Shown here piece by piece: positions 969 to 11,643 of a stretch of 64,000 nucleotides of DNA. Made by a program: the position numbers and the translations under genes. Location: positions 143,532 to 207,531 of the forward strand of contig CAVSGM010000003.1 in NCBI GenBank assembly GCA_963727485.1, in the 5' to 3' direction. The DNA is from an uncultured delta proteobacterium. GTDB taxonomy: Bacteria > Myxococcota > Myxococcia > SLRQ01. Below the pieces are notes generated by a model, which was not told where the DNA came from, did not search any database, and saw only the letters and a list, made by a program, of their open reading frames with translations. Each line of letters begins with the position of its first letter. Within the stretch, counting starts at the first letter, position 1.

Positions 969-2045
969 CTAGCCGAAGAACACCGCGGCGTCGTCGTAGA
1001 GCGCCTGGTCGATGCCCTTGAGCTTGGCGGTGGCCTCGGCGAGCGGCACCTCGACCATGGCGGTGCCCTTGAGGGCGACCATCATCCCGAACTGCCCCCG
1101 CTGCACCATCTCGGCGGCGTGGAGGCCGAAGCGGGTGGCGAGCACCCGGTCCCAGGCGGTGGGGCTGCCCCCGCGCTGCACGTGGCCCAGGGTGGTCACC
1201 CGGGTCTCGATCCCGAGGCGCTCCTCGAGCTCGGCGGCGAGCCAGGCGCCGACGCCCCCGAGGCGCGGGCGGCCGAAGTCGTCGGGGGTGGCGATGGCGG
1301 TGATGAGCCTGGGCTCCCCGTCCTCGCCGATGATCCGGGCGCCCTCGGCGACGACCACGATGGAGAAGTTCTTCCCCCGGCGGTGGCGGCGCTCGAGGCT
1401 CCGGGCGAGCTCGTCGAGGTCGGTGGCCCGCTCGGGGACCAGGATGGCGTCGGCGCCCCCGGCCATCCCCGCGTGGAGCGCGATGTGGCCCACGTGCCGG
1501 CCCATGACCTCGACCACCATGACCCGGCTGTGGGCCTCGGCGGTGGTGTGGAGGCGGTCGATGGCGTCGGTGGCGATCTGCACCGCGGTGTCGAAGCCGA
1601 AGGTGTAGTCGGTGGCGGCGATGTCGTTGTCGATGGTCTTCGGCACCCCGACCACCTTGAGCTGGCCGCGCTCGTGGAAGCGCCGGGTGATGGAGAGGGT
1701 GCCCTCGCCGCCGATGGCGATCACCGCGTCGAGGCCGAGCTCGGCGGCGGTGTGCTCCACCCGCGCCGGGCCGTCGTCTGCCTGGTAGGGGTTCACGCGG
1801 GTGGTCCCGAGGATGGTGCCCCCGGCGTGGAGGATCCCGCTGACCGCGCGCTGGGTGAGCTTGAAGTGGTCGCGCTCGAGGAGCCCCTGCCACCCGCCCC
1901 GGATCCCGGTGACCTCGTAGTGGAGGGACACCGAGCGCCGGACCACCGCGCGAATCACCGCGTTGAGCCCCGGGCAGTCGCCGCCGCCGGTGAGGATGCC
2001 GACCTTCACGGGTGCCTCGTTACGCCAGGGTGGGCAGGGCTGCAA
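969..2045 (-). CDS. pfkA: 6-phosphofructokinase
   Basis: 358-aa ORF containing [23 protein letters not shown]...GGEGTL...[10 protein letters not shown], the PFK fold motifs. The start may be a few codons inside the listed ATG. Confidence 0.85.
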
Positions 2046-2110
2046 GCACGGATATCCTGCGCTGCGCCGGATCGTTGCCCGGCCGGGGTCGCGGTGCTAA
2101 TCCCCCACCC

Positions 2111-3505
2111 ATGAAGACGCGCATCGAAACCGACTCCATGGGTGAGATGGAGGTCCCGGCGGACCGCTACTACGGCGCCCAGACCGCCCGCTCCAAGTCG
2201 AACTTCAAGATCGGCGGCGAGACCATGCCCCGGGAGATCCTCCGGGCCTTCGGGATCCTCAAGAAGGCCGCGGCGATCACCAACCGGGACCTGGGCAACC
2301 TCGAGCCGGCCATCGCCGACCTCATCGTCAAGGCCGCCGACGAGGTCATCGCCGGCAAGCTCGACGACCACTTCCCCCTGGTGGTGTGGCAGACCGGGTC
2401 GGGGACCCAGTCGAACATGAACGTCAACGAGGTCATCTCCAACCGCGCCATCGAGCTCGCCGGCGGACAGATGGGCTCCAAGAAGCCGGTCCACCCCAAC
2501 GACCACGTCAACCGCTCCCAGTCGAGCAACGACACCTTCCCCACCGCCATGCACATCGCCGCGGTGGAGCGCATCGAGGACCACCTCCTGCCCAAGGTGA
2601 AGCAGCTGCGGGACACCCTGGCGGGCAAGTCCGAGCAGTTCGCCGACATCGTGAAGATCGGGCGCACCCACCTCCAGGACGCGGTGCCCCTGACCCTGGG
2701 CCAGGAGATGAGCGGCTGGGTGGCCCAGCTCGACCACGCCCTGGCCGCCGTCGAGGCCACGCTCCCCCAGCTCCGGGAGCTGGCGCTCGGCGGCACCGCG
2801 GTGGGCACCGGGCTCAACACCCACCCCAAGTACGCCGAGCAGGTGGCGGCGAAGATCGCCGAGCTGTCCGGCCACGCCTTCGTCACCGCGCCCAACAAGT
2901 TCGGGGCGCTCGCCGCCCACGACGCCTTCGTGGGGACCAGCGGGGCCCTCAAGCAGCTCGCCGCCGCGTGCATGAAGATCGCCAACGACGTGCGCTGGCT
3001 CGCCAGCGGCCCGCGCTGCGGCATCGGCGAGCTGAAGATCCCCGAGAACGAGCCGGGCAGCTCCATCATGCCGGGCAAGGTGAACCCCACCCAGGCCGAG
3101 GCCATGACCATGGTCTGCTGCCAGGTCTTCGGCAACGACGCCACCATCGGCTTCGCCGGCTCCCAGGGGAACTTCGAGCTCAACGTCTACAAGCCGGTGA
3201 TCGCCTTCAACCTGCTCCAGTCGGTGCGGCTCCTCGGCGACAGCTGCGAGAGCTTCGACATTCACTGCGCGGTGGGCATCGAGCCCAACCGCGAGGTCAT
3301 CGAGCGGAACCTCAAGAACTCCCTGATGCTGGTGACGGCGCTGAACCCCAAGATCGGCTACGACAACGCCGCCAAGGTGGCCAAGCACGCCCACAAGACC
3401 GGCGGCACCCTCAAGGACGCGGCGGTGGAGCTGGGCCTGCTCACCGCGGAGGAGTTCGACGCCGCCGTCCGGCCCGATAAGATGGTCGGACCCCTCGATC
3501 TGTAG
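2111..3505 (+). CDS. fumC: Class II fumarate hydratase (fumarase C)
   Basis: [28 protein letters not shown]...[16 protein letters not shown], the class II fumarase signature. The internal ATG at 2111 of the longer 2012 ORF fits homologue length. Confidence 0.9.
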
Positions 3506-3526: not shown

Positions 3527-4255
3527 ATGTCCCCGAGCCCCCGCCTCGCCCTCGCCGCCGCCGTCCTCTTCGCCTGTGCCGCCTGCAGCGGCGGGAGCGG
3601 CGGGGGCACCCCCGACGGCGGCACCGACGGGGGCTCGAACGGCCAGACCGACCAGGCCTACTTCGGGCTGACCGACGGCACCTGCTACGGCTTCCTCCAG
3701 GCCGGGGGCACCGCGGGCCGTCCCCCGGACGCCACCATCGGGATCCAGGCGGACAACACCCTGGGCTACCCGGCGCTGCGGGTGGACTACCGGGTGGGCG
3801 GCTTCGTCCTCCGCACCGACTTCGTGACCGTGGACAACGGCCAGGTGCTGCTCCACCGGCGCGAGGAGACGGGCAACCCCGGGATGCAGGTGGAGTTCAG
3901 CCCGCCCATCGTGCTCCTCGAGCGGCCGGTGCGGGAGACCGGGACCTCGCCTGTCACCACCGACTCCACCTCCACCGACGTGACCGACAGCAGCACCGCC
4001 GCCTGGCACGTGGAGGTCACCGTCGCCGCCACCCAGTCCACCCAGACCACCCAGCAGAGCGCCCCCTACGACGCCTACCCGGTCTACCTCGCCTACCAGC
4101 ACCCGACCCTGGGGGCGGCGCAGCAGGACAAGCTGTGGGTGGTCCCGAACACCGGCTTCGTGCGCGCCGACCTCGACGGCTCGAGCTGGCCCGACGTCAC
4201 CCTCTCCGCCATCTGGCAGCTCAAGCCGGGGGAAAGCCGATGCACCGCGCCGTGA
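3527..4255 (+). CDS. Hypothetical lipoprotein
   Basis: N-terminus MSPSPRLALAAAVLFACAACSGG carries a signal peptide plus lipobox; Thr/Ser-rich; no recognisable catalytic motif. Confidence 0.5.
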   Translation: MSPSPRLALAAAVLFACAACSGGSGGGTPDGGTDGGSNGQTDQAYFGLTDGTCYGFLQAGGTAGRPPDATIGIQADNTLGYPALRVDYRVGGFVLRTDFVTVDNGQVLLHRREETGNPGMQVEFSPPIVLLERPVRETGTSPVTTDSTSTDVTDSSTAAWHVEVTVAATQSTQTTQQSAPYDAYPVYLAYQHPTLGAAQQDKLWVVPNTGFVRADLDGSSWPDVTLSAIWQLKPGESRCTAP

Positions 4256-5106
4256 TCCGTTCCGTCCGCCGGGCCCTGGTCCCGGCCCTGGGCCTCGCCC
4301 TGGGCCTCGGCTTCGGTCTCGCCTCGTGCAAGACCGCGCCGCAGGTGAAGGCGCCGGGCACCTTCACCGTCGAGCCCACGGGCCTCAAGACCACCCACCA
4401 GACCCTCTCGAGCTTCACCGTGACCCTCTCGGCGTCGGTGGAGAACCCGGGGAAGGTGCCGCTGACGATCACCGGCGCCGACTACACACTCACCGTCGGG
4501 GGCAAGGTGCTGCGCACCGGCCACGCGCCCCTGGAGCTGACGGTGGCGCCCACGAGCAGCGGCCAGCTCTCGTTCCCAGTGGCGGTGGAGTACGCCCTCA
4601 AGCTCGAGGAGCTCCAGAAGCTCGCGAGCACCCCCACCATCGATCTCCTCCTCGGCGGGACCATCGACGGCAAGCTGGGGACGCAGGCGGTCCAGGTGCC
4701 CTTCTCCCGGGCCGGGCAGCTTCGCAGCCCCCGGCTGCCGACGGTCAAGCTCGGGACCCCCGACGCCGCGCGCCAGAGCCTCTCGGAGATCGCCGCCACC
4801 TTCCGCCTCCAGGTGGAGAACGACAACCCGTTCCCGGTGAAGCTCGACGGCCTCGACTACGTGCTCACCGTCCAGGGCGCCGACGTGGCCTCGGGGACCG
4901 TCGGCGACCGGACCACCGTGCCGCCCTCGTCGACCCAGACCTGGGAGGTCCCGACGGACCTCACCGAGAAGACGGTCCCGGGGATGACCAAGGCGATGAA
5001 GGAGAACAACGCCCTCGACGATCACCTCAAGGGCGTGTTGCACCTGGGGCCGGTGGACGTGCCGGTGGATCTGACCTCGCAGATCACCTTCACCGAGCAG
5101 CGGTAG
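4240..5106 (+). CDS. LEA14/WHy (late-embryogenesis-abundant LEA-2)-like lipoprotein
   Basis: MHRAVIRSVRRALVPALGLALGLGFGLASCK gives a signal peptide and lipobox. It is followed by two repeated beta-rich modules (TFTVEPTG...VENPGKVPLTITGADYTLTVGGKVL; FRLQVENDNPFPVKLDGLDYVLTVQGADVASG) matching the LEA-2/WHy pattern. It overlaps the previous ORF by 16 nt. Confidence 0.5.
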   Translation: MHRAVIRSVRRALVPALGLALGLGFGLASCKTAPQVKAPGTFTVEPTGLKTTHQTLSSFTVTLSASVENPGKVPLTITGADYTLTVGGKVLRTGHAPLELTVAPTSSGQLSFPVAVEYALKLEELQKLASTPTIDLLLGGTIDGKLGTQAVQVPFSRAGQLRSPRLPTVKLGTPDAARQSLSEIAATFRLQVENDNPFPVKLDGLDYVLTVQGADVASGTVGDRTTVPPSSTQTWEVPTDLTEKTVPGMTKAMKENNALDDHLKGVLHLGPVDVPVDLTSQITFTEQR

Positions 5107-5191
5107 CAGCGGTCGCGCCCCGGGGGCGGCGACCCGCCGGCGAGGTCGGTGAGGTCGGTGACGGTGGGGGCTTGATTCTCGGGTCGGCTTT

Positions 5192-5227
5192 CAACTAACA
5201 ATCAAAAAATCATTTGATTGTTAGTTG
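5192..5227. promoter_or_regulatory. Perfect 15-6-15 inverted repeat, candidate ArsR-type operator
   Basis: CAACTAACAATCAAA-AAATCA-TTTGATTGTTAGTTG. It is AT-rich in a very GC-rich background and overlaps the 5' end of the ArsR–rhodanese ORF. Confidence 0.6.
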
Positions 5228-5913
5228 GAGTGACCGTGCCCAAGACCGAAGTCCGAGACCAGCTCTACGAGGCCTACGCCCGCATCGGCCAGGCCGCCGG
5301 CAGCCCCCGGCGCCTGCGCCTGCTCAACATCCTTGCCCAGGCCGAGAAGACCGTGGAGGCCCTGGCCGAGGAGACCGGCCAGTCCACCGCCGCGGTGAGC
5401 GCCCACCTCAAGGTCCTCCGGGAGGCCCACCTGGTCGCCGGCCGCCGGGAGGGGCGCCACGTGCGCTACCGGGTCGCCGACGACACGGTCACCCGGTTCT
5501 GGGTCGCCCTCCAGGCCCTCGGCGAGGCGAGGCTCCCCCAGGTCCGGGACACGGTCCACCGCTACTTCTCCGAGCCCGAGACCCTCGAGCCCTTCGACGC
5601 CTGGACCCTCCTCGGCCAGGTGCAGCGTGGCGAGGTCCTCCTCCTCGACCTGCGAAAGGCCGACGAGTACGCCGCCGGCCACATCCCCGGCGCCCGCTCC
5701 GTCCCCGCCATCGAGCTCGAGTCGCGTCTCGCCGAGCTGCCCACCGATCGCCGGATCGTCGCCTACTGCCGCGGCCCCTACTGCGTGGTCGCCCTGGAAA
5801 CCGTCGAGCGCCTCCGGGCGAAGGGCCTGGAGGTGCGGCGCCTCCCCGCGGGGATCGCCGAGTGGCAGGCCGGCGGCCACGACCTCGAGCGCATCCCCAA
5901 CCCCCTCACCTGA
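5218..5913 (+). CDS. ArsR/SmtB-family transcriptional regulator fused to a rhodanese (sulfurtransferase) domain
   Basis: N-terminal wHTH (LRLLNILAQAEKTVEALAEETGQSTAAVSAHLKVLREAHLV) followed by a rhodanese domain with an active-site Cys loop (LLLDLRKADEYAAGHIPGARSV...IVAYCRGPYC). The true start is probably the GTG at ~5230-5236, just past the palindrome. Confidence 0.75.
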   Translation: MLVGVTVPKTEVRDQLYEAYARIGQAAGSPRRLRLLNILAQAEKTVEALAEETGQSTAAVSAHLKVLREAHLVAGRREGRHVRYRVADDTVTRFWVALQALGEARLPQVRDTVHRYFSEPETLEPFDAWTLLGQVQRGEVLLLDLRKADEYAAGHIPGARSVPAIELESRLAELPTDRRIVAYCRGPYCVVALETVERLRAKGLEVRRLPAGIAEWQAGGHDLERIPNPLT

Positions 5914-5928
5914 ACCGGAGTCCCCACC

Positions 5929-6882
5929 ATGTCCGCCCCCCTTGACGCCTCCAAGCGCGCCGACGCCCTCTTCCGGGGCCTGTTCAGCCTCCTCTTCGTG
6001 GTCGCCGGGATCGAGCACCTGTTCAACACCCAGAAGGTGGTGGCCAAGCTCGCCCACGCGCCGCTGGCCTGGCTGGCCACCGACCTCGCCCCGCCGACCT
6101 TCCTGGTCGTCGCCGCGGGCGTCACCCTCTTCGTCTTCGGCCTGATGATGCTCCTGGGCTTCCGCACCCGCCTGGCGGCGGTGGTCCTCATCGCGGTGCT
6201 CATCCCCATCACCATCACGGTGCAGGTGGGCAGCGTGAAGACCATCGGGCCCCTGCTCAAGAACGTGGCGCTCCTCGGCGGCCTCATCCACTTCGCCTCC
6301 GTGGGCAGCGGGCCGGTGAGCCTCGACGCCCTCTTCGCCCGCCTCCGGGGCCAGACCCTCGAGGGCGACGGCCTCACCCTCTTCGGGCGGTCCGCCGGGG
6401 TCGGGGCGCTCGCCGCCGGGGCGCTGGCCCTGATCCTCGGGGTCGTCGTGGCCTCCATGGGCTGCCCCCGGGCCGCCGCGGCGGAGGAGGGGCACAAGGC
6501 GTGCGCCGCCCCCAAGCGCGCCGCCCTCGGCGCCCCGGTGGAGAAGGCCGAAGGCGTCGCCTTCCTGGTCCGCGACGTGTCCACCCTCAAGGCGAGCCTC
6601 GGCACCGCCGGCCAGATGCTCCACGGCCAGGGCTTCCCCGTCGCCCACGCCGAGGTGGTGGTCTGCGGGAAGCTGGTCCAGCAGCTGGTCATGGGCTCCG
6701 ACCTCGAGCCCGCCATCGAGCGGGCGAGCCAGGGCGGGGTGAAGGTCGTGGCCTGCGGGCTCTCGCTCGCCCACATGCACGTGGACCCCCGGAGCCTCTC
6801 GACCTACGTCTCCACCGTCCCCAACGGCCTGGTGGAGATGGTCCGCCTCGAGGCGAAGGGCTGGCAGGCGGTGTCGCTCTAG
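5929..6882 (+). CDS. DoxX-family membrane domain fused to a DsrE/DsrF-like sulfur-relay domain
   Basis: N-terminal four-helix DoxX-like region (LFRGLFSLLFVVAGIEHL...LLGGLIHF). C-terminal VAFLVRD...VVVCGKLVQQL...VKVVACGLSLAHMHVD resembles DsrE/TusD-like proteins. Confidence 0.6.
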   Translation: MSAPLDASKRADALFRGLFSLLFVVAGIEHLFNTQKVVAKLAHAPLAWLATDLAPPTFLVVAAGVTLFVFGLMMLLGFRTRLAAVVLIAVLIPITITVQVGSVKTIGPLLKNVALLGGLIHFASVGSGPVSLDALFARLRGQTLEGDGLTLFGRSAGVGALAAGALALILGVVVASMGCPRAAAAEEGHKACAAPKRAALGAPVEKAEGVAFLVRDVSTLKASLGTAGQMLHGQGFPVAHAEVVVCGKLVQQLVMGSDLEPAIERASQGGVKVVACGLSLAHMHVDPRSLSTYVSTVPNGLVEMVRLEAKGWQAVSL

Positions 6883-6904
6883 CGGCAGCCGGGGCCCGGG
6901 CCCG

Positions 6905-7810
6905 CTACCCCTTCCCGCGGGTCCGGGTCTTCCCCGGCTCGGCGGTCTTCTCCACGAACTCGATCATCTTCCCGGCGATGTCCTTGCCGGTGGTGGTCTC
7001 GATCCCCTCGAGGCCGGGCGAGGCGTTCACCTCCATGACCACCGGCCCGTGGTGCGACCGGAGGATGTCCACGCCGGCGACGTTGAGCCCCAGGATCCGC
7101 GCCGCGCGCACCGCCGTCGACCGCTCCTCGGGGGTGATCTTCACGGTCTCGGCCTGGCCGCCCCGGTGGAGGTTGGAGCGGAACTCGCCGGCCTTCGCCG
7201 TCCGGCGCATGGAGGCGACGACCTTGTCCCCGATGACGAAGAGGCGCAGGTCCGAGCCCTTGGCCTCCTTGATGAACTCCTGGACGATGATGTTGGCGTT
7301 GAGGCCCATGAACGCCTCGATGACGCTCTCGGCGGCCTGGGAGGTCTCGGCGAGGACCACGCCGATGCCCTGGGTGCCCTCGAGGAGCTTGATCACCGAC
7401 GGCGCCCCGCCCACGAACTGCAGCAGGTCCCCGACGTCGTCGGGGGAGCGGGCGAAGCCGGTGACCGGCATCCCGATGCCCTTGCGCGCCAGCAGCTGGA
7501 GGCTCCGGAGCTTGTCCCGGGCCCGGCTGATGGCCACCGACTCGTTGAGGCAGAAGACGCCCATCATCTCGAACTGCCGCACCACCGCGGCGCCGTAGAA
7601 GGTCACCGAGGCGCCGATCCGGGGGATGACGGCGTCGAAGCCCTCGAGCTTGCGCCCCCGGTAGTGCACCGAGGGGTTGTGGGCGGAGATGTTCATGTAG
7701 CAGCGCAGGGTGTCGATGACCTCCGCCTCGTGGCCCCGGGCCTCGCAGGCCTCCACCAGCCGGCGGGTGGAGTAGAGCTTTCGGTTGCGGGACAGGATGG
7801 CGATCTTCAT
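6905..7810 (-). CDS. rimK: RimK-family ATP-grasp alpha-L-glutamate ligase
   Basis: [33 protein letters not shown]...[17 protein letters not shown]...[30 protein letters not shown], the canonical RimK pattern. Confidence 0.85.
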
Positions 7811-8018
7811 GGCGCGTCCTCCGGAGAACGGGCGGAGCGGGCCTCGGCAGAGCGGGCCGGGGCCGGGGCCGTGCGGGCGTTACGAGTGGGCGCCCGATCG
7901 CCGGCGCGGGCCGTAGGCGCGGCGGAGCGTCCGGCCGGTGAGGTAGGACGCGCCGGGGTCGACGAGCATCCGTCCGGCGAGGGCGGTGCGACCTAGTAGC
8001 ATCCGGAAGCGCATGGTG

Positions 8019-8348
8019 TCACGAGCCGTCAGCGGAGATCTCCACCGGCACCGCGAGGTCGCCGACCACCACCTCGGTGGCCAGGATCGGCCGGCGCTCC
8101 CGGTGCCCCCCGGAGTCGCTGACCACCCGCTCGTCGGCCACCGGGGCGGCGCACACCAGCTCCACGTCCGAGCGCCGCTGCAGGGGGTGGAGGCGAAAGC
8201 GCACCCAGGGCGCGCCCCGGTCGAGGTAGCGCTCCACGGCGAAGGCGTGCAGCGCGCTGGTCCGCGCCCCGGTGTCGATCTTCGCCTTCACCGCCGGGAT
8301 CCCGAGCCCCGGGAGGGCGACCCACTCGCGCCAGCCGACGGTCAGCAC
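8019..8348 (-). CDS. RimK-associated retropepsin-like protein (DUF785, putative ATP-dependent zinc protease)
   Basis: [36 protein letters not shown]... matches the DUF785 signature. A GTG start directly abuts the glmS stop. It sits inside the 745-aa shadow ORF 8019..10256. Confidence 0.65.
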
Positions 8349-8350
8349 GC

Positions 8351-10183
8351 TCACTCGACGGTGACGCTCTTGGCGAGGTTTCTGGGCTGGTCCACGTCGG
8401 TGCCGTGGTGGTCGGCGACGTGGTAGGCGAGCAGCTGCAGGGGCACCACCGCCAGGAGCGGCTCGGTGAGCGCCGACGACTCGGGGATCCAGAGCACGTC
8501 GTGGGCCAGCCGCCCGATCTCCGCGTCCCCCTCGGTGGCGATGGCGATCACCCGCCCGCCCCGGGCCCGCGCCTCCTCGAGGTTCCCCAGGACCTTCTCG
8601 TAGGCCGAGTGCCTGGTGGCCACCACCACCACCGGCAGCCCCTGGTCGATGAGGGCGATGGGCCCGTGCTTCATCTCGCCGGCGGGGTAGCCTTCGGCGT
8701 GGAGGTAGGAGATCTCCTTGAGCTTGAGGGCCCCCTCGAGGGCGATGGGGAAGGCGATGCCCCGGCCCAGGAAGAGGAAGTCCCGGGCGGAGGCGACGTC
8801 CCGGGCGAGCTCGGCGATGTGCGCCTCGTCCTCGAGGAGGTGCTCTACCTGCCGGGGCACCGCCGCCAGTGCCTCGAGGTGGGCCCGGCCCTGGGCGGCG
8901 TCCACCGTCCCCCGGAGCCGCCCGAGGCGAAGCGCCACCAGGTAGAGGGCGGCGAGCTGGGTGGTGAACGCCTTGGTGGAGGCGACGCCGATCTCGGGGC
9001 CGGCGTGGGTGTAGAGGACGTCGTCGGCCTCCCGGGCGATGGCCGAGCCCAAAACGTTGACGATGGCGAAGGTACGGGCGCCGAGGCGCTTGGCCTCGCG
9101 CATCGCCGCCAGGGTGTCGGCGGTCTCGCCGGACTGGGAGATGGCGAGCACCAGGGTCCTCTCGTCGATGACCGGCTGCCGGTAGCGGAACTCGCTGGCG
9201 TAGTCGACCTCCACCGGGACCCGGGCGAGCTGCTCCACCAGGAACTTGCCCACCAGCCCCGCGTGCCAGCTGGTCCCACAGGCGACGATCACCACCCGGG
9301 AGATCGCCTCGGCGTCGGCGCGGGAGAGCTTCACCTCGTCGAGGACCACCTCGCCGTGCTCCGGTCGCATCCGGGTGCGCAGGGTGTCGGCGATGGCCCG
9401 GGGCTGCTCGTGGATCTCCTTGTGCATGAAGTGCTTGTGGCCGTTCTTCTCGGCCATCACCGGGGACCAGTCGATGCGCGTGGTCTCGCGGGAGACCGGG
9501 GTCCCGTCGAAGCGGATGATCCGCGCACCGTCCCGGCGCACCGTGGCGATCTCGCCCTCCTCGAGGAAGATCACCTCCCGGGTCCAGGGCAAGAGCGCCG
9601 GGACGTCCGAGGCCACGTGCCACGCCCCCTCGCCCCGGCCGAGGACCAGCGGCGAGGCGTTCTTGGCCACCACGATCTCGTCGGGGTGATCCGCGTGCAT
9701 CACCACCAGGGCGTAGGTGCCCTTCACCCGGGCCCGGGCCGCGCGCACCGCCTCGGTGAGGTCGCCGCCGCTCTCGTCGAGGGCGTCGGCCACCAGGTGG
9801 GCGAAGATCTCGGTGTCGGTCTCGCTGACGAAGACGTGGCCCGCGGACTCGAGCTCCCGGCGCAGGGCCAGGTGGTTCTCGATGATCCCGTTGTGGACCA
9901 CCGCCACGTCCCGGTACCGGTGGGGGTGGGCGTTCTTCTCGCTCGGGGGCCCGTGGGTCGCCCACCGGGTGTGGCCGATGCCCAGGTGGCCCGGGGTCGG
10001 GTGCGCGGCGAGGGCCGTCACCAGCCCGGCGAGCTTCCCCTCGCAGCGCACGATGTCCAGGCCGCCGTCCCCGAGGACCGCGACCCCCGCCGAGTCGTAG
10101 CCCCGGTACTCGAGGCGCCGCAGGCCCTCGACCAGGATCGGCGCCGCTTCCTCGGGGCCCACGTAACCAACGATGCCGCACAT
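8351..10183 (-). CDS. glmS: Glutamine--fructose-6-phosphate aminotransferase (glucosamine-6-phosphate synthase)
   Basis: MCGIVGYVG... N-terminal Cys nucleophile with two SIS domains (VIVACGTSWHAG, FLGRGIAFPIALEGALKLKEISY) and C-terminal ...AKSVTVE. Confidence 0.92.
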   Translation of the reverse strand: MCGIVGYVGPEEAAPILVEGLRRLEYRGYDSAGVAVLGDGGLDIVRCEGKLAGLVTALAAHPTPGHLGIGHTRWATHGPPSEKNAHPHRYRDVAVVHNGIIENHLALRRELESAGHVFVSETDTEIFAHLVADALDESGGDLTEAVRAARARVKGTYALVVMHADHPDEIVVAKNASPLVLGRGEGAWHVASDVPALLPWTREVIFLEEGEIATVRRDGARIIRFDGTPVSRETTRIDWSPVMAEKNGHKHFMHKEIHEQPRAIADTLRTRMRPEHGEVVLDEVKLSRADAEAISRVVIVACGTSWHAGLVGKFLVEQLARVPVEVDYASEFRYRQPVIDERTLVLAISQSGETADTLAAMREAKRLGARTFAIVNVLGSAIAREADDVLYTHAGPEIGVASTKAFTTQLAALYLVALRLGRLRGTVDAAQGRAHLEALAAVPRQVEHLLEDEAHIAELARDVASARDFLFLGRGIAFPIALEGALKLKEISYLHAEGYPAGEMKHGPIALIDQGLPVVVVATRHSAYEKVLGNLEEARARGGRVIAIATEGDAEIGRLAHDVLWIPESSALTEPLLAVVPLQLLAYHVADHHGTDVDQPRNLAKSVTVE

Positions 10184-10275
10184 GTCCTAAACCTCTACAC
10201 CGGGTTCGCCGGCGCACCCAAGAGCCGGTCGCGATCGCCGCCGGGCCACCGGGCACGGTCCCCAGGGGGCCGGCC

Positions 10276-11643
10276 CTATTTCCGCTTCCTGCCCCGGGGC
10301 TTCCTGGGCGCCCGGCGCGCCACCCAGCCCTCGAGGTTCTTCTGGGGCCCCCGGGCCACCGCCAGGGCCCCGGCGGGGACGTCCTTGGTCAGGGTGGACC
10401 CGGCGCCCACGTAGGCCCCGTCGCCGACGGTGATGGGCGCCACCAGGGCGGTGTTCGAGCCGATGAAGCACCCGGCGCCGAGGGTGGTCTGGTGCTTGGC
10501 GGCGCCGTCGTAGTTGCAGGTGATGGTCCCGGCGCCGACGTTGGTCCCGGCGCCCACCTCCGCGTCGCCGAGGTAGGAGAGGTGGTTGGCCTTGGCGCCC
10601 CGGCCCAGGTGGGCCTTCTTGGTCTCCACGAAGTTCCCCAGGTGCACCTCGCCCTCGAGGACCGACCCGGGCCGCACCCGGGCGAAGGGCCCGACCCGGC
10701 ACCCGTCGCCGATGACCCCGTCCTCCACATGCGACCAGGGCAGGAGGGTCACGCCCCGGCCCACCCGGGTCTCGCCCAGGAGGTGGCAGCCGGCGCCGAT
10801 GACCGTGTCCCGGCCAATCGCCACGCCCTCGTCGACGTAGGTGTTCGCCGGATCCTCGAAGCTCACCCCGCCGACCATCAGCGCCTCGTTGATCCGCCGG
10901 CGCATCAGTGTGGCCGCCCGGGCGAGCTCCACCCGGTCGTTGACCCCGGCGACCTCGCTGGGATCGGCGACCGGCACCGCCTTCACCGTGAGCCCCCGGG
11001 CCACCGCCACCGCCACCACGTCGGTGAGGTAGAGCTCCCCCTGGGCGTTGTCGGCCCTCAGGTTTCCGAGGGCCGCCTCGAGAATCTTGCGGTCGACGTC
11101 GTAGATCCCGGCGTTGATCTCCCCGAGGCGCCGCTCGGCCGGGGTGCAGTCCCGGTGCTCCACGATCCGCACCACCCGCCCGTGGCCGTCGCGGACGATG
11201 CGCCCGAGGCCCGTGGGGTCGGCGGGCTCGGTGGTGAGCAGCGCCACCGCCGCCTTGGCCCCGGCGCGCACCAGGCGCTGGAAGGTGGCCCGGGTGAGCA
11301 GGGGCACGTCGCCGTAGAGGATGCGCACCCGCTTGGCCCGGCCCACCTCGGGGAGGGCGCAGCGCACCGCGTCGCCGGTGCCCCGCTGGTCGCGCTGGGT
11401 GACGAAGCGCAGGGGCGCCCCGGGGAAGGCGGCCTCGAGGGCCGCGCGCACCGCCTCGCCCTGGTGGCCGACGACGACCACCACCCGGCGGCTGCCGGCG
11501 TCGAGGGCCCGGCGCACCGGGTAGAAGGCCAGCGGCCGGCCGCAGAGGGGGTGGAGGACCTTGGCGGTGGCGGAGCGCATCCGGGTGCCCTTGCCCGCCG
11601 CGAGGATCACCGCTGCATCGGGAGTCGAAGCCATGGGGGGCAT
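10276..11643 (-). CDS. glmU: Bifunctional UDP-N-acetylglucosamine pyrophosphorylase / glucosamine-1-phosphate N-acetyltransferase
   Basis: AAVILAAGKGTRMRS..., followed by left-handed beta-helix hexapeptide repeats (GAGTNVGAGTITCNYDGAAKHQTTLGAGCFIGSNTALVAPITVGDGAYVGAGS). Confidence 0.9.
   Translation of the reverse strand: MPPMASTPDAAVILAAGKGTRMRSATAKVLHPLCGRPLAFYPVRRALDAGSRRVVVVVGHQGEAVRAALEAAFPGAPLRFVTQRDQRGTGDAVRCALPEVGRAKRVRILYGDVPLLTRATFQRLVRAGAKAAVALLTTEPADPTGLGRIVRDGHGRVVRIVEHRDCTPAERRLGEINAGIYDVDRKILEAALGNLRADNAQGELYLTDVVAVAVARGLTVKAVPVADPSEVAGVNDRVELARAATLMRRRINEALMVGGVSFEDPANTYVDEGVAIGRDTVIGAGCHLLGETRVGRGVTLLPWSHVEDGVIGDGCRVGPFARVRPGSVLEGEVHLGNFVETKKAHLGRGAKANHLSYLGDAEVGAGTNVGAGTITCNYDGAAKHQTTLGAGCFIGSNTALVAPITVGDGAYVGAGSTLTKDVPAGALAVARGPQKNLEGWVARRAPRKPRGRKRK

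Follow-up and report, generated by a model that had tools for sequence, protein, structure and literature searches.

We analyzed a 64,000-nucleotide stretch of contig CAVSGM010000003.1 from an uncultured delta proteobacterium (hereafter the window, i.e., the whole stretch) and identified, at positions 5192 to 6882, two open reading frames (ORFs) preceded by a conspicuous palindrome. The first (ORF1) encodes a regulator in which an ArsR/SmtB winged helix-turn-helix (wHTH) is fused to a rhodanese domain, and the second (ORF2) encodes a membrane protein in which DoxX is fused to a DsrE-like domain. With somewhat better than even confidence, we regard this region as a self-contained autoregulated two-gene operon that would sense sulfane sulfur through the rhodanese domain and whose effector would be an exported DsrE-like protein. 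The coordinates of the individual features are given in Table 1.

The palindrome is a perfect 15-6-15 inverted repeat with 100% complementary arms, and it ends 8 nucleotides before the start of ORF1. Its GC content of 0.37-0.43 makes it an AT-rich island in surroundings of about 0.70-0.80, as the original prediction had described. The two arms are the only copies of the half-site in the 64 kb, even when 3 mismatches were allowed (chance expectation 0.02; none of 100 shuffles reached two matches). Being single-copy, the palindrome was ruled out as the end of a mobile element or a member of a repeat family. In L001, a relative that is 92-94% identical, both arms are unchanged while the flanks have diverged, and the sole change within the repeat is a T to G in the spacer. 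This substitution hits the conserved central element described below, turning AATC into AAGC.

Three start codons are available to ORF1, namely TTG 5218 (which gives the longest ORF and lies inside the repeat), GTG 5230, and GTG 5236. The likely start is GTG 5236, with GTG 5230 as the alternative, because GGAG precedes it, an identical public protein of 225 residues (P0001) uses it, and the N-termini of homologues align there. Therefore, the palindrome precedes rather than overlaps the start codon: the overlap first proposed holds for the longest reading frame and not for the probable gene. The helix-turn-helix is intact with every candidate start, which removes the concern that a downstream start would cost the regulator its DNA-binding domain.

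The evidence that the palindrome is an operator comes from the family of ORF1. For 80 homologues, we extracted the 200 nucleotides upstream, searched them for inverted repeats, and counted the resulting motif between positions -150 and +20. Most of these upstream regions hold an AT-rich palindrome with the same half-site, located 25-65 nucleotides before the gene, for example TCGACTATTCAAG-CGTCCA-CTTGAATAGTCGA in L038, AGTATTCAAT-AACCTC-ATTGAATACT in L059, and CTAATAATCTAAC-CATC-GTTAGATTGTTAG in L076. The motif ATTC-N12-GAAT was found upstream of 36 of the 80 homologues (37 matches in 13.5 kb) versus 6 matches in the remaining 539 kb of the same loci, a 226-fold enrichment, and the relaxed form A[TA]TC-N12-GA[TA]T was found upstream of 47. 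The same half-sites at spacings of N8, N10, N11, N13, and N14 gave 0-1 matches in these regions (none at N8), so AT-richness is controlled for. Loci with ATTC-N12-GAAT belong to Chloroflexota, Acidobacteriota, Myxococcota, Gemmatimonadota, Actinomycetota, Beta- and Gammaproteobacteria, and others. The closest variants to the window's own CTAACAATC-N12-GATTGTTAG are CTAATAATC-N12-GATTGTTAG in L076 and CTAACATTC-N12-GATTGTTAG in L052, and their outer arms are nearly identical to it. In the window itself, AWTC-N12-GAWT occurs a single time, as the core AATC-N12-GATT of the palindrome. Half-site sequence and exact spacing are thus conserved across phyla over variable spacers, as expected of a site bound by a protein, and we conclude with high confidence that the palindrome is very probably the cognate operator of the ArsR-rhodanese regulator, to which binding is predicted. 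The family footprint and the window palindrome together place an inverted repeat at the regulator's own presumed promoter, as expected of an autoregulated ArsR/SmtB protein, and they support the autoregulatory role that was initially assigned to this repeat.

Position counts over 46 sites revealed a conserved asymmetric center, ATTC-N4-(A/T)ATC-N4-GAAT, and the window spacer AAATCA provides this central (A/T)ATC. The spacer of the family operator is therefore constrained, with an asymmetric third element inside an otherwise palindromic site. In several relatives, a -35-like hexamer (TTGACT or TTGACA) abuts the operator. At L104 (2147-2184), the arrangement is TTGACA-ATTC-N12-GAAT with ATG 10 nucleotides after GAAT, so that the operator extends across the promoter and hardly any leader can be left on the transcript. 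The same layout, with the promoter embedded in the operator and an mRNA almost without a leader, is implied at several ArsR-rhodanese loci, and by comparison with these GTG 5230 is a possible start in the window. Further sites occur in L022, where a second one lies between the regulator and the next gene, and in L093, where AATCAAAAAGATATTTGAAC lies upstream of the DoxX operon. Two operator copies, about 90 nucleotides apart or overlapping, were observed upstream at L013:3860-3990, L047:3867-3985, and L032:2812-2850; such pairs suggest cooperative or graded repression. At L002:4930-4975, a DoxX-DsrE fusion from an AT-rich genome (P0124), which has no ArsR-rhodanese neighbor, carries a repeat of its own upstream, TATTCTA-N8-TAGAATA, resembling the family half-site at a different spacing.

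As first annotated, ORF1 joins an ArsR-type wHTH to a rhodanese domain with a CRGPYC loop, and both Pfam matches are strong (Table 1). The NCBIfam model HTH_metalloreg also matched it (74.2 bits versus a cut-off of 55). The AlphaFold model (mean predicted local distance difference test, pLDDT, 92; predicted TM-score, pTM, 0.85) shows a canonical ArsR fold, i.e., alpha1 to alpha5 with a beta-wing (helices 3-21, 24-33, 40-47, and 51-63, wing 67-80, and helix 83-99); an additional helix (101-110) and the rhodanese domain come after it. Foldseek matched the wHTH to 3gw2/2kko with a TM-score on the target of 0.91 (3gw2) and to SmtB and CzrA with 0.83-0.85. Its matches for the rhodanese domain (BH2092, 3tp9, and 5ve5) cover single-domain rhodaneses and fusions of rhodanese to persulfide dioxygenase (PDO), and its structural neighbors include the persulfide dioxygenase-rhodanese fusion PRF and a rhodanese protein with a metallo-beta-lactamase (MBL) domain. 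The position of C178 is that of the rhodanese catalytic cysteine (it aligns with the active-loop cysteine of 1yt8 domain 2), and in an alignment of 20 homologues (47-58% identity) C178, R179, G180, and C183 are invariant and P181 is nearly so. Competence as a sulfurtransferase is nevertheless putative and unproven, given an atypical loop in which a second cysteine closes CRGPYC. A reading of the loop as arsenate reductase-like (Cdc25/Acr2, C-X5-R) was ruled out, since V, L, I, or M, and not Arg, occupies position +6.

Among the known systems closest to this regulator are BigR, SqrR, and YgaV, which are wHTH autorepressors acting on an ATTC...GAAT-type inverted repeat over their own promoters and controlling rhodanese, PDO, and sulfur-transport genes. 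In Escherichia coli, ArsR-type YgaV is co-transcribed with the rhodanese YgaP, a split analogue of ORF1. On the other hand, these proteins sense through two cysteines, located in alpha2 and alpha5, that join in a di- or polysulfide bridge, whereas ORF1 has no cysteine there. Their operator is ATTC-N8-GAAT (PMC9774250) as opposed to N12 in the family of ORF1, and the BigR model NF040642 scored ORF1 at 37 bits versus a cut-off of 155. The BigR/SqrR-type sensing suggested for ORF1 by the original prediction was therefore dropped. Residues 1-110 hold no cysteine, and alpha5 (83-99, DTVTRFWVALQALGEAR) has no ligand pattern of His, Asp, or Glu. Neither the alpha3N (CXC) nor the alpha5 (D/H-x-H-x10-H-x2-E/H) set of metal or metalloid ligands was found in the ORF1 sequence, and for these reasons ORF1 is not a classical metal sensor. 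Because the wHTH offers neither a cysteine nor a metal site, sensing would go through the rhodanese loop.

What the loop would respond to can be judged from the company that the family keeps. We scanned against Pfam the gene immediately downstream of 54 ArsR-rhodanese homologues, and the commonest families were sulfur-trafficking ones: Rhodanese (13), Lactamase_B (10; one member, in L008, has both Rhodanese and Lactamase_B, and the overlap is uncounted for the rest), DsrE (7), Aminotran_5 of the cysteine-desulfurase type (5), and Pyr_redox_2 (3). Moreover, DoxX and DsrE-like partners sit with genes for SoxB-like proteins, TauE, sulfide:quinone oxidoreductase (SQR), MBL proteins, and DUF442. 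The neighbors of both families thus bear out the sulfur theme of the original prediction, and with moderate confidence sulfane sulfur is the signal of the regulator; persulfide or thiosulfate would be the actual species. These observations also argue against a different signal, which we see as possible though unlikely. ORF1 might be a general sensor of thiol oxidation or electrophiles (H2O2, disulfide stress, or quinones) or a metalloid sensor with arsenite or selenite bridging C178 and C183, or its rhodanese domain might be a non-catalytic module for ligand binding or dimerization. Either a simple disulfide or As(III) chelation would be within reach of a C-X4-C pair, sulfurtransferases do not usually have such a loop, and the 54 downstream genes also include non-sulfur ones (FA_hydroxylase 4, MFS 2, and methyltransferases 2). 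Published work on a mycobacterial relative connects it with drug tolerance and nutrient stress, not with sulfur. DoxX relatives have been implicated in quinone and thiol stress. The window, however, holds no ars or other metalloid genes near the unit. The seven DsrE genes were also considered as orthologues of the DsrE-like domain of ORF2 and rejected, as they are YchN/TusD-like, 11-24% identical to it, and without a signal peptide. Membrane proteins of the FA_hydroxylase/sterol desaturase type adjoin DoxX/DsrE-like pairs (L095:2282-3160 on the minus strand and L101:1-270) as well as the ArsR-rhodanese genes.

The combination in ORF1 is not as uncommon as first thought. A search of 5.8 billion protein sequences returned 3134 matches, and the best 120 all consist of an ArsR-type HTH (HTH_5 or HTH_20) and Rhodanese within about 215-280 residues. 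The peptide [VI]AYCRGP[YF]C had at least 600 confirmed matches in contigs of one genome per species; those listed span Chloroflexota, Acidobacteriota, Myxococcota, Gemmatimonadota, Planctomycetota, Actinomycetota, Thiobacillus, other Beta- and Gammaproteobacteria, and more taxa, and the closest relatives are Myxococcota-type metagenome-assembled genomes. By these sequence counts the ArsR-rhodanese fusion is common, and it has already been mentioned in the literature as a domain combination. Our literature search found no ArsR-rhodanese protein with an assigned ligand, rhodanese-domain role, sensing chemistry, or operator. The best solved match to the wHTH of ORF1 is Mb0332 of Mycobacterium bovis (3gw2/2kko, deposited as 'wHTH fragment 1-100'; E 1e-15, 40% identity). 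Rv0324 of Mycobacterium tuberculosis shifts its own promoter as a purified protein in an electrophoretic mobility shift assay (PMC9953421) and is a regulator of bedaquiline tolerance and a network hub (PMC9480834). Unlike ORF1, it does not have DoxX or DsrE as genomic partners, and our literature search on Rv0324 found no role assigned to the rhodanese domain, no operator motif, and no sulfur signal.

ORF1 and ORF2 are best read as one unit because only 15 nucleotides separate them, GGAG lies in this gap, no terminator intervenes, and the pairing of the two recurs in at least four independent lineages. In ORF2, the DoxX domain (PF07681) was matched with E 6.3e-11 and 43.2 bits versus a cut-off of 23.6. 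Its membrane helices in the structural model (5-32, 56-76, 80-99, and 106-125) agree with the hydrophobic windows, Foldseek matched this part to the DoxX-fold protein NACHO/TMEM35A (TM-score on the target 0.72), and it is 49% identical to the free-standing DoxX of L093. The second domain fell below the threshold for Pfam DsrE (PF02635; 17.0 bits versus 22.7, E 0.0066) and had no match in NCBIfam. The C-terminal 117 residues did match ST0148 (E 0.003; 1.6e-4 for an engineered version) and MTH1491 (E 0.25) among PDB sequences. Residues 205-317 were modeled with pLDDT of about 90, and the model resembles ST0148 (2pd2) and MTH1491 (1l1s; COG1416-type) with TM-scores on the target of 0.85 each, and DsrEFH (chain C) and YchN with 0.70 each. 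Judged by its predicted structure, 'DoxX-DsrE fusion' is therefore a correct name at the level of fold. Cys276 (nucleotides 6754-6756) is invariant in 23 family members and aligns with the conserved cysteine of ST0148 and MTH1491, and Cys246 (nucleotides 6664-6666) is near-invariant.

The TusD-like carrier function that had been attached to the fusion did not fare as well as its fold. DsrEFH, TusBCD, DsrE3, YchN, ST0148, and MTH1491 share the alpha/beta fold with the ORF2 domain (identity 13-23%), but they are cytoplasmic and lack signal peptides. The family of the ORF2 domain is small, is predicted to be exported, has a second conserved cysteine, and is repeatedly fused or adjacent to DoxX. 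The DsrE-like domain by itself gave no matches when proteins were searched by word index, and only five proteins of the full-length DoxX-DsrE architecture were found by the same approach. HMMER, run exhaustively with the domain by itself over 1.84 billion cluster representatives, yielded only 205 clusters at E <= 1e-3. Among the best 150, we counted 16 DoxX fusions (264-317 residues) and 109 full-length short proteins (125-200 residues), and 100 of the latter start with a hydrophobic signal-like segment, 29 of these with a lipobox-like motif (e.g., MKTPRRLLLFFTLLLAGVGC... in P0129 and ...VLAIALLAGC... in L093). Several apparent exceptions turned out to be truncated fusions. The linkers of the fusions likewise resemble an internal signal peptide, with basic residues, a hydrophobic stretch, and small residues. 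Split pairs of genes for DoxX and a DsrE-like lipoprotein were found in L093, L095, and L101, immediately adjacent and overlapping in the latter two. These split pairs, together with the identity of the DoxX part to that of L093, indicate that ORF2 looks like a gene fusion that has kept the signal peptide as its fifth helix. This helix may thus be a signal-anchor, the relic of a signal or lipoprotein peptide with a non-canonical lipobox. Since the basic N-terminus and the RTR loop would be cytoplasmic and five membrane passes follow, the DsrE-like domain most likely faces the periplasm, a prediction from hydropathy and homology that we hold with moderate to high confidence. No TusA or DsrF/H-type genes were present among the annotated neighbors, and our literature search found no characterized DoxX-DsrE protein. 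The rarity first ascribed to the whole arrangement lies, as far as sequence searches tell, in ORF2 and not in ORF1.

A search of metagenomes with an alignment of seven DsrE-like domains recovered five loci. In metagenome contigs, a recurrent cluster was observed in which DoxX and an exported DsrE-like (lipo)protein are accompanied by a SoxB-like lipoprotein, often with TauE, DsbD/thioredoxin, or SQR/MBL/DUF442 genes (Table 1). The best model for the SoxB-like proteins, which belong to the 5'-nucleotidase family, is SoxB TIGR04486 with 282-313 bits, far above other models but below the equivalog cut-off of 550. The pairing of ArsR-rhodanese with DoxX/DsrE-like genes, proposed from the window, recurs in L006, L104/L105, and L093 in addition to the lineage of the window and L001. 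At L088 and L100, divergent genes for an extracytoplasmic function (ECF) sigma factor and a putative anti-sigma factor accompany the effector, which looks like an alternative, envelope-stress-type control of the same protein; the putative anti-sigma factors have 229-231 residues and no Pfam or NCBIfam match.

Table 1. Positions of the two-gene unit and its parts, of the genes around it, and of related loci
Feature	Sequence	Positions	Strand	Basis or remark
Proposed operator of the ArsR-rhodanese repressor (15-6-15 repeat)	Window	5192-5227	none	Unique in window, AT-rich, conserved in L001
Left arm, CAACTAACAATCAAA	Window	5192-5206
Operator core, AATC-N4-AATC-N4-GATT	Window	5200-5219	none	Window version of family motif ATTC-N12-GAAT with internal (A/T)ATC
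Spacer, AAATCA (6 nucleotides)	Window	5207-5212
Right arm, TTTGATTGTTAGTTG	Window	5213-5227
Ribosome-binding site of ORF1, GGAG	Window	5227-5230	+	Read from sequence; first base is last base of palindrome
ORF1, ArsR/SmtB wHTH + rhodanese regulator (225 residues)	Window	5236-5913	+	Pfam, identical public protein P0001, AlphaFold, Foldseek
HTH_5 DNA-binding region, residues 23-67	Window	5302-5436	+	Pfam, E 2.8e-12
Rhodanese homology domain, residues 127-212	Window	5614-5871	+	Pfam, E 8.5e-15; Foldseek
Active-site loop C178-R-G-P-Y-C183, proposed sensor site	Window	5767-5784	+	Only cysteines of ORF1
Intercistronic spacer (15 nucleotides)	Window	5914-5928	+	GGAG at 5917-5920; no terminator
ORF2, DoxX (4 transmembrane helices) + fifth hydrophobic helix + DsrE-like domain (317 residues)	Window	5929-6882	+
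DoxX domain, residues 13-98	Window	5965-6222	+	Pfam; helical bundle to about residue 127
Fifth hydrophobic helix, residues 152-177, ending ..ASMGC179	Window	6382-6465	+	Hydropathy and model helix
DsrE-fold domain, residues 205-317	Window	6541-6879	+
LEA_2-domain gene, upstream of unit	Window	4135-5106	+
RimK ATP-grasp (rimK), convergent, downstream boundary	Window	6905-7810	-
PFK-type phosphofructokinase	Window	969-2045	-
Class II fumarase	Window	2012-3505	+
glmS	Window	8351-10183	-
glmU	Window	10276-11643	-
DoxX, SoxB-like lipoprotein, DsrE-like lipoprotein, ArsR-rhodanese, full-length DsbD	L093	1274-7052
FA_hydroxylase (divergent), DoxX, DsrE-like, SoxB-like, TauE, PBP	L095	2282-7951
SoxB-like C-terminus, DsrE-like	L092	30-943
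Thioredoxin, YgaP-like transmembrane protein, unannotated 220-residue gene (opposite strand), SoxB-like, DsrE-like; divergent DUF1634-TauE	L102/L103	L102: 489-5746
DUF442, DoxX, DsrE-like, MBL, SQR fragment, cytochrome bd	L094	1738-7203
ArsR-rhodanese, DsbD_TM-thioredoxin, DoxX-DsrE fusion	L104/L105
Divergent ECF sigma + putative anti-sigma	L088	52-1268
Divergent ECF sigma + putative anti-sigma; DsbD_TM	L100	1888-3863

The DoxX/DsrE-like/SoxB-like cluster resembles a Sox system made with other parts. Sox loci encode SoxR (ArsR-type), SoxV (CcdA-like), SoxS/W (thioredoxins), SoxB, and the cysteine carrier SoxYZ, and the related loci parallel this set with an ArsR-type regulator, CcdA/DsbD-like and thioredoxin proteins, a SoxB-like hydrolase, and a cysteine-bearing carrier. 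Like ORF1, SoxR and sHdrR are ArsR-family repressors; they respond to sulfane sulfur and act over a periplasmic sulfur-oxidation set. In contrast to Sox, an exported protein of DsrE fold would serve as carrier, and electrons would leave through DoxX to quinone. The window itself does not hold a Sox system in the usual sense, as no SoxB-like gene was found in it by tblastn; no search was aimed at SoxXA or SoxYZ. Thiosulfate:quinone oxidoreductase (TQO; DoxD/DoxA) and the DoxX-SseA-SodA complex of Mycobacterium tuberculosis offer another precedent, in which DoxX/DoxD-fold membrane proteins are linked to thiosulfate or thiol chemistry and quinones and work with a sulfurtransferase. They differ from ORF2, in which DoxX and its partner form a single polypeptide and the partner, of DsrE fold, is expected from prediction to lie outside the cytoplasm. 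ORF2 scored 20.8 bits against DoxD (PF04173; cut-off 22.7), and ORF2 is the sole gene co-transcribed with the regulator; no search was aimed at DoxA.

The design of ORF2 also brings to mind the bacterial VKOR-thioredoxin fusions, in which a four-helix quinone-linked core is followed by a fifth helix and a periplasmic two-cysteine redox domain. ORF2 might accordingly be an envelope thiol:disulfide oxidoreductase of the DsbB/VKOR kind that acts on protein thiols and has no role in inorganic sulfur, a reading that we consider improbable. It would account for the two conserved cysteines of the DsrE-like domain and for the association with DsbD, DsbD_TM-thioredoxin, thioredoxin, and ECF sigma/anti-sigma genes. 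However, the folds are unrelated and the likeness is one of design, not of family. The DoxX part lacks loop cysteines and any conserved cysteines for an electron relay. The SoxB-like, TauE (sulfite exporter), SQR, MBL, and DUF442 neighbors point instead to inorganic sulfur. DsbD-like and thioredoxin genes are also part of Sox systems, where they maintain a sulfur carrier in its reduced state.

It is very unlikely that the palindrome acts as RNA rather than as a DNA operator, i.e., as a leader hairpin that hides GGAG and the GTG (translational control) or as a terminator of the upstream LEA_2 gene. The segment 5180-5245 does fold with -32.3 kcal/mol (z = -7.4) into a stem that reaches over GGAG and the start region, and with no promoter located the transcription start could lie upstream. 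On the other hand, no run of T follows the stem, and the Rfam scan gave no family match, returning only chance microRNA-like matches (E >= 0.14). The scan of 4900-7100 returned a single terminator-like site, within the upstream gene and on the minus strand. ATTC/GAAT and the exact N12 are conserved across phyla while spacers vary, which is not the covariation that preserves pairing; a hairpin leaves this family-wide footprint unexplained, and the L104 site, between TTGACA and ATG, would be mostly outside the mRNA. Both roles, DNA operator and RNA hairpin, could coexist in this window. Equally little chance is given to the DsrE-like domain being a cytoplasmic, membrane-tethered TusD/DsrE-type relay with stretch 152-177 re-entrant or peripheral: canonical DsrE, TusD, and YchN proteins are cytoplasmic, the linker model is of low confidence, ASMGC is lipobox-like but non-canonical, and cytoplasmic YchN/TusD-like genes follow ArsR-rhodanese in 7 of 54 loci, yet the latter represent another subfamily, the true relatives of the domain overwhelmingly carry signal-like segments or lipoboxes (e.g., LLAGC in L093), the fusions place a charged n-region, an h-region, and an AxA-like linker exactly where a signal peptide would be, and the neighbors are envelope proteins (DsbD, the SoxB-like lipoprotein hydrolase, and ECF sigma/anti-sigma).

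For the autoregulated, sulfur-sensing operon that we favor, the following sequence of events can be proposed. A dimer of ORF1 on the palindrome would block the promoter, in keeping with relatives in which TTGACA or TTGACT flanks an operator that ends about 10 nucleotides before the start. Given the invariant C-X4-C loop, the sulfur-related neighbors, and the lack of any other sensor site, the most economical course is that sulfane sulfur (persulfide, polysulfide, or thiosulfate) would load Cys178 as a persulfide, which Cys183 would convert to a di- or trisulfide within the loop. This change may be relayed through helix alpha6 to the DNA-binding domain, upon which the repressor would leave the DNA. 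The co-transcribed ORF2 would then provide, according to fold and topology predictions and comparison with relatives, a DoxX four-helix protein joined by the signal-anchor-like fifth helix to a periplasm-facing DsrE-fold domain with two cysteines. This domain may carry sulfur or thiosulfonate on Cys276, with DoxX coupling its oxidation or reduction to the quinone pool, which is the least certain step. Where present, the SoxB-like hydrolase, TauE, and DsbD/thioredoxin would complete a Sox-like envelope pathway. Our confidence in the precise chemistry of the pathway is low.

Several observations weigh against this proposal. The relation of operator to promoter in the window is one of them: a consensus scan of 4900-7100 found no sigma-70-like promoter, the -35 and -10 candidates around the palindrome looked poor by eye, and we claim no promoter position. 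The window site (AATC/GATT) differs from the ATTC/GAAT of the family, and for 33 of the 80 homologues the region searched does not hold the relaxed motif either. We infer the ligand of ORF1, its cysteine chemistry, and repression by it, and the final position of CRGPYC is a cysteine where Arg, Ser, or Thr is usual. Export of the DsrE-like domain is a prediction from hydropathy, homologues, and a linker model of low confidence (pLDDT below 50 over residues 141-204). An ArsR-rhodanese gene is absent from many DoxX-DsrE or DsrE-like loci, and tblastn with the SoxB-like, TauE, DsbD, MBL, SQR-fragment, and DUF442 proteins found no matches in the window. In addition, Mb0332 is the orthologue of Rv0324, presumably a 226-residue ArsR plus rhodanese protein that would thereby belong to the family of ORF1, and the PDB entry names only fragment 1-100.

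The surroundings of the unit in the window (969-3505 and 6905-11643) are housekeeping genes without a sulfur theme, and their order is the same in L001. Judging from this arrangement, the two genes appear to have been inserted between conserved neighbors. Just past the stop of the LEA_2 gene, we noticed by eye a GC-rich imperfect hairpin at 5111-5134 (GGTCGCGCCCC...GGCGGCGACC) without a T-run, a possible terminator that would shield the operon from transcription entering from upstream.

A wider proposition, which we consider doubtful, is that DoxX and the exported DsrE-like protein are the central pair of a Sox-like envelope pathway, coupled to quinone and so far undescribed, that is switched on by a new class of sulfane-sulfur sensors that includes Rv0324. 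The exported DsrE-fold protein would be the cysteine-based carrier (the role of SoxYZ), and DoxX would load or oxidize the carrier and pass electrons to quinone (the role of SoxXA, but in the manner of TQO). The SoxB-like lipoprotein would hydrolyze the bound sulfonate to sulfate or sulfite, to be exported or handled with TauE, and DsbD/thioredoxin would keep the carrier reduced (the role of SoxV/SoxS). In the sensor class, the rhodanese fused to the ArsR wHTH would, with its C-X4-C loop, have taken over sensing.

With thousands of sequences in many phyla, ArsR-rhodanese is one of the larger sub-architectures of the ArsR family. What is new here is the operator consensus ATTC-N12-GAAT with its internal ATC, a candidate C-X4-C sensor loop, and a sulfur-centered set of neighbors. 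If true, this sensor logic gives Rv0324 a ligand and an operator (ATTC-N12-GAAT). DsrE-fold proteins are regarded as cytoplasmic relays, and an exported family would extend sulfur-relay chemistry to the periplasm; the same link would give DoxX, which is widespread but of unclear function, a concrete partner. The window represents the most compact version of this arrangement, in which a single operator and a single sensor go with a single effector fusion, and the operon suggests an undescribed envelope sulfur pathway.

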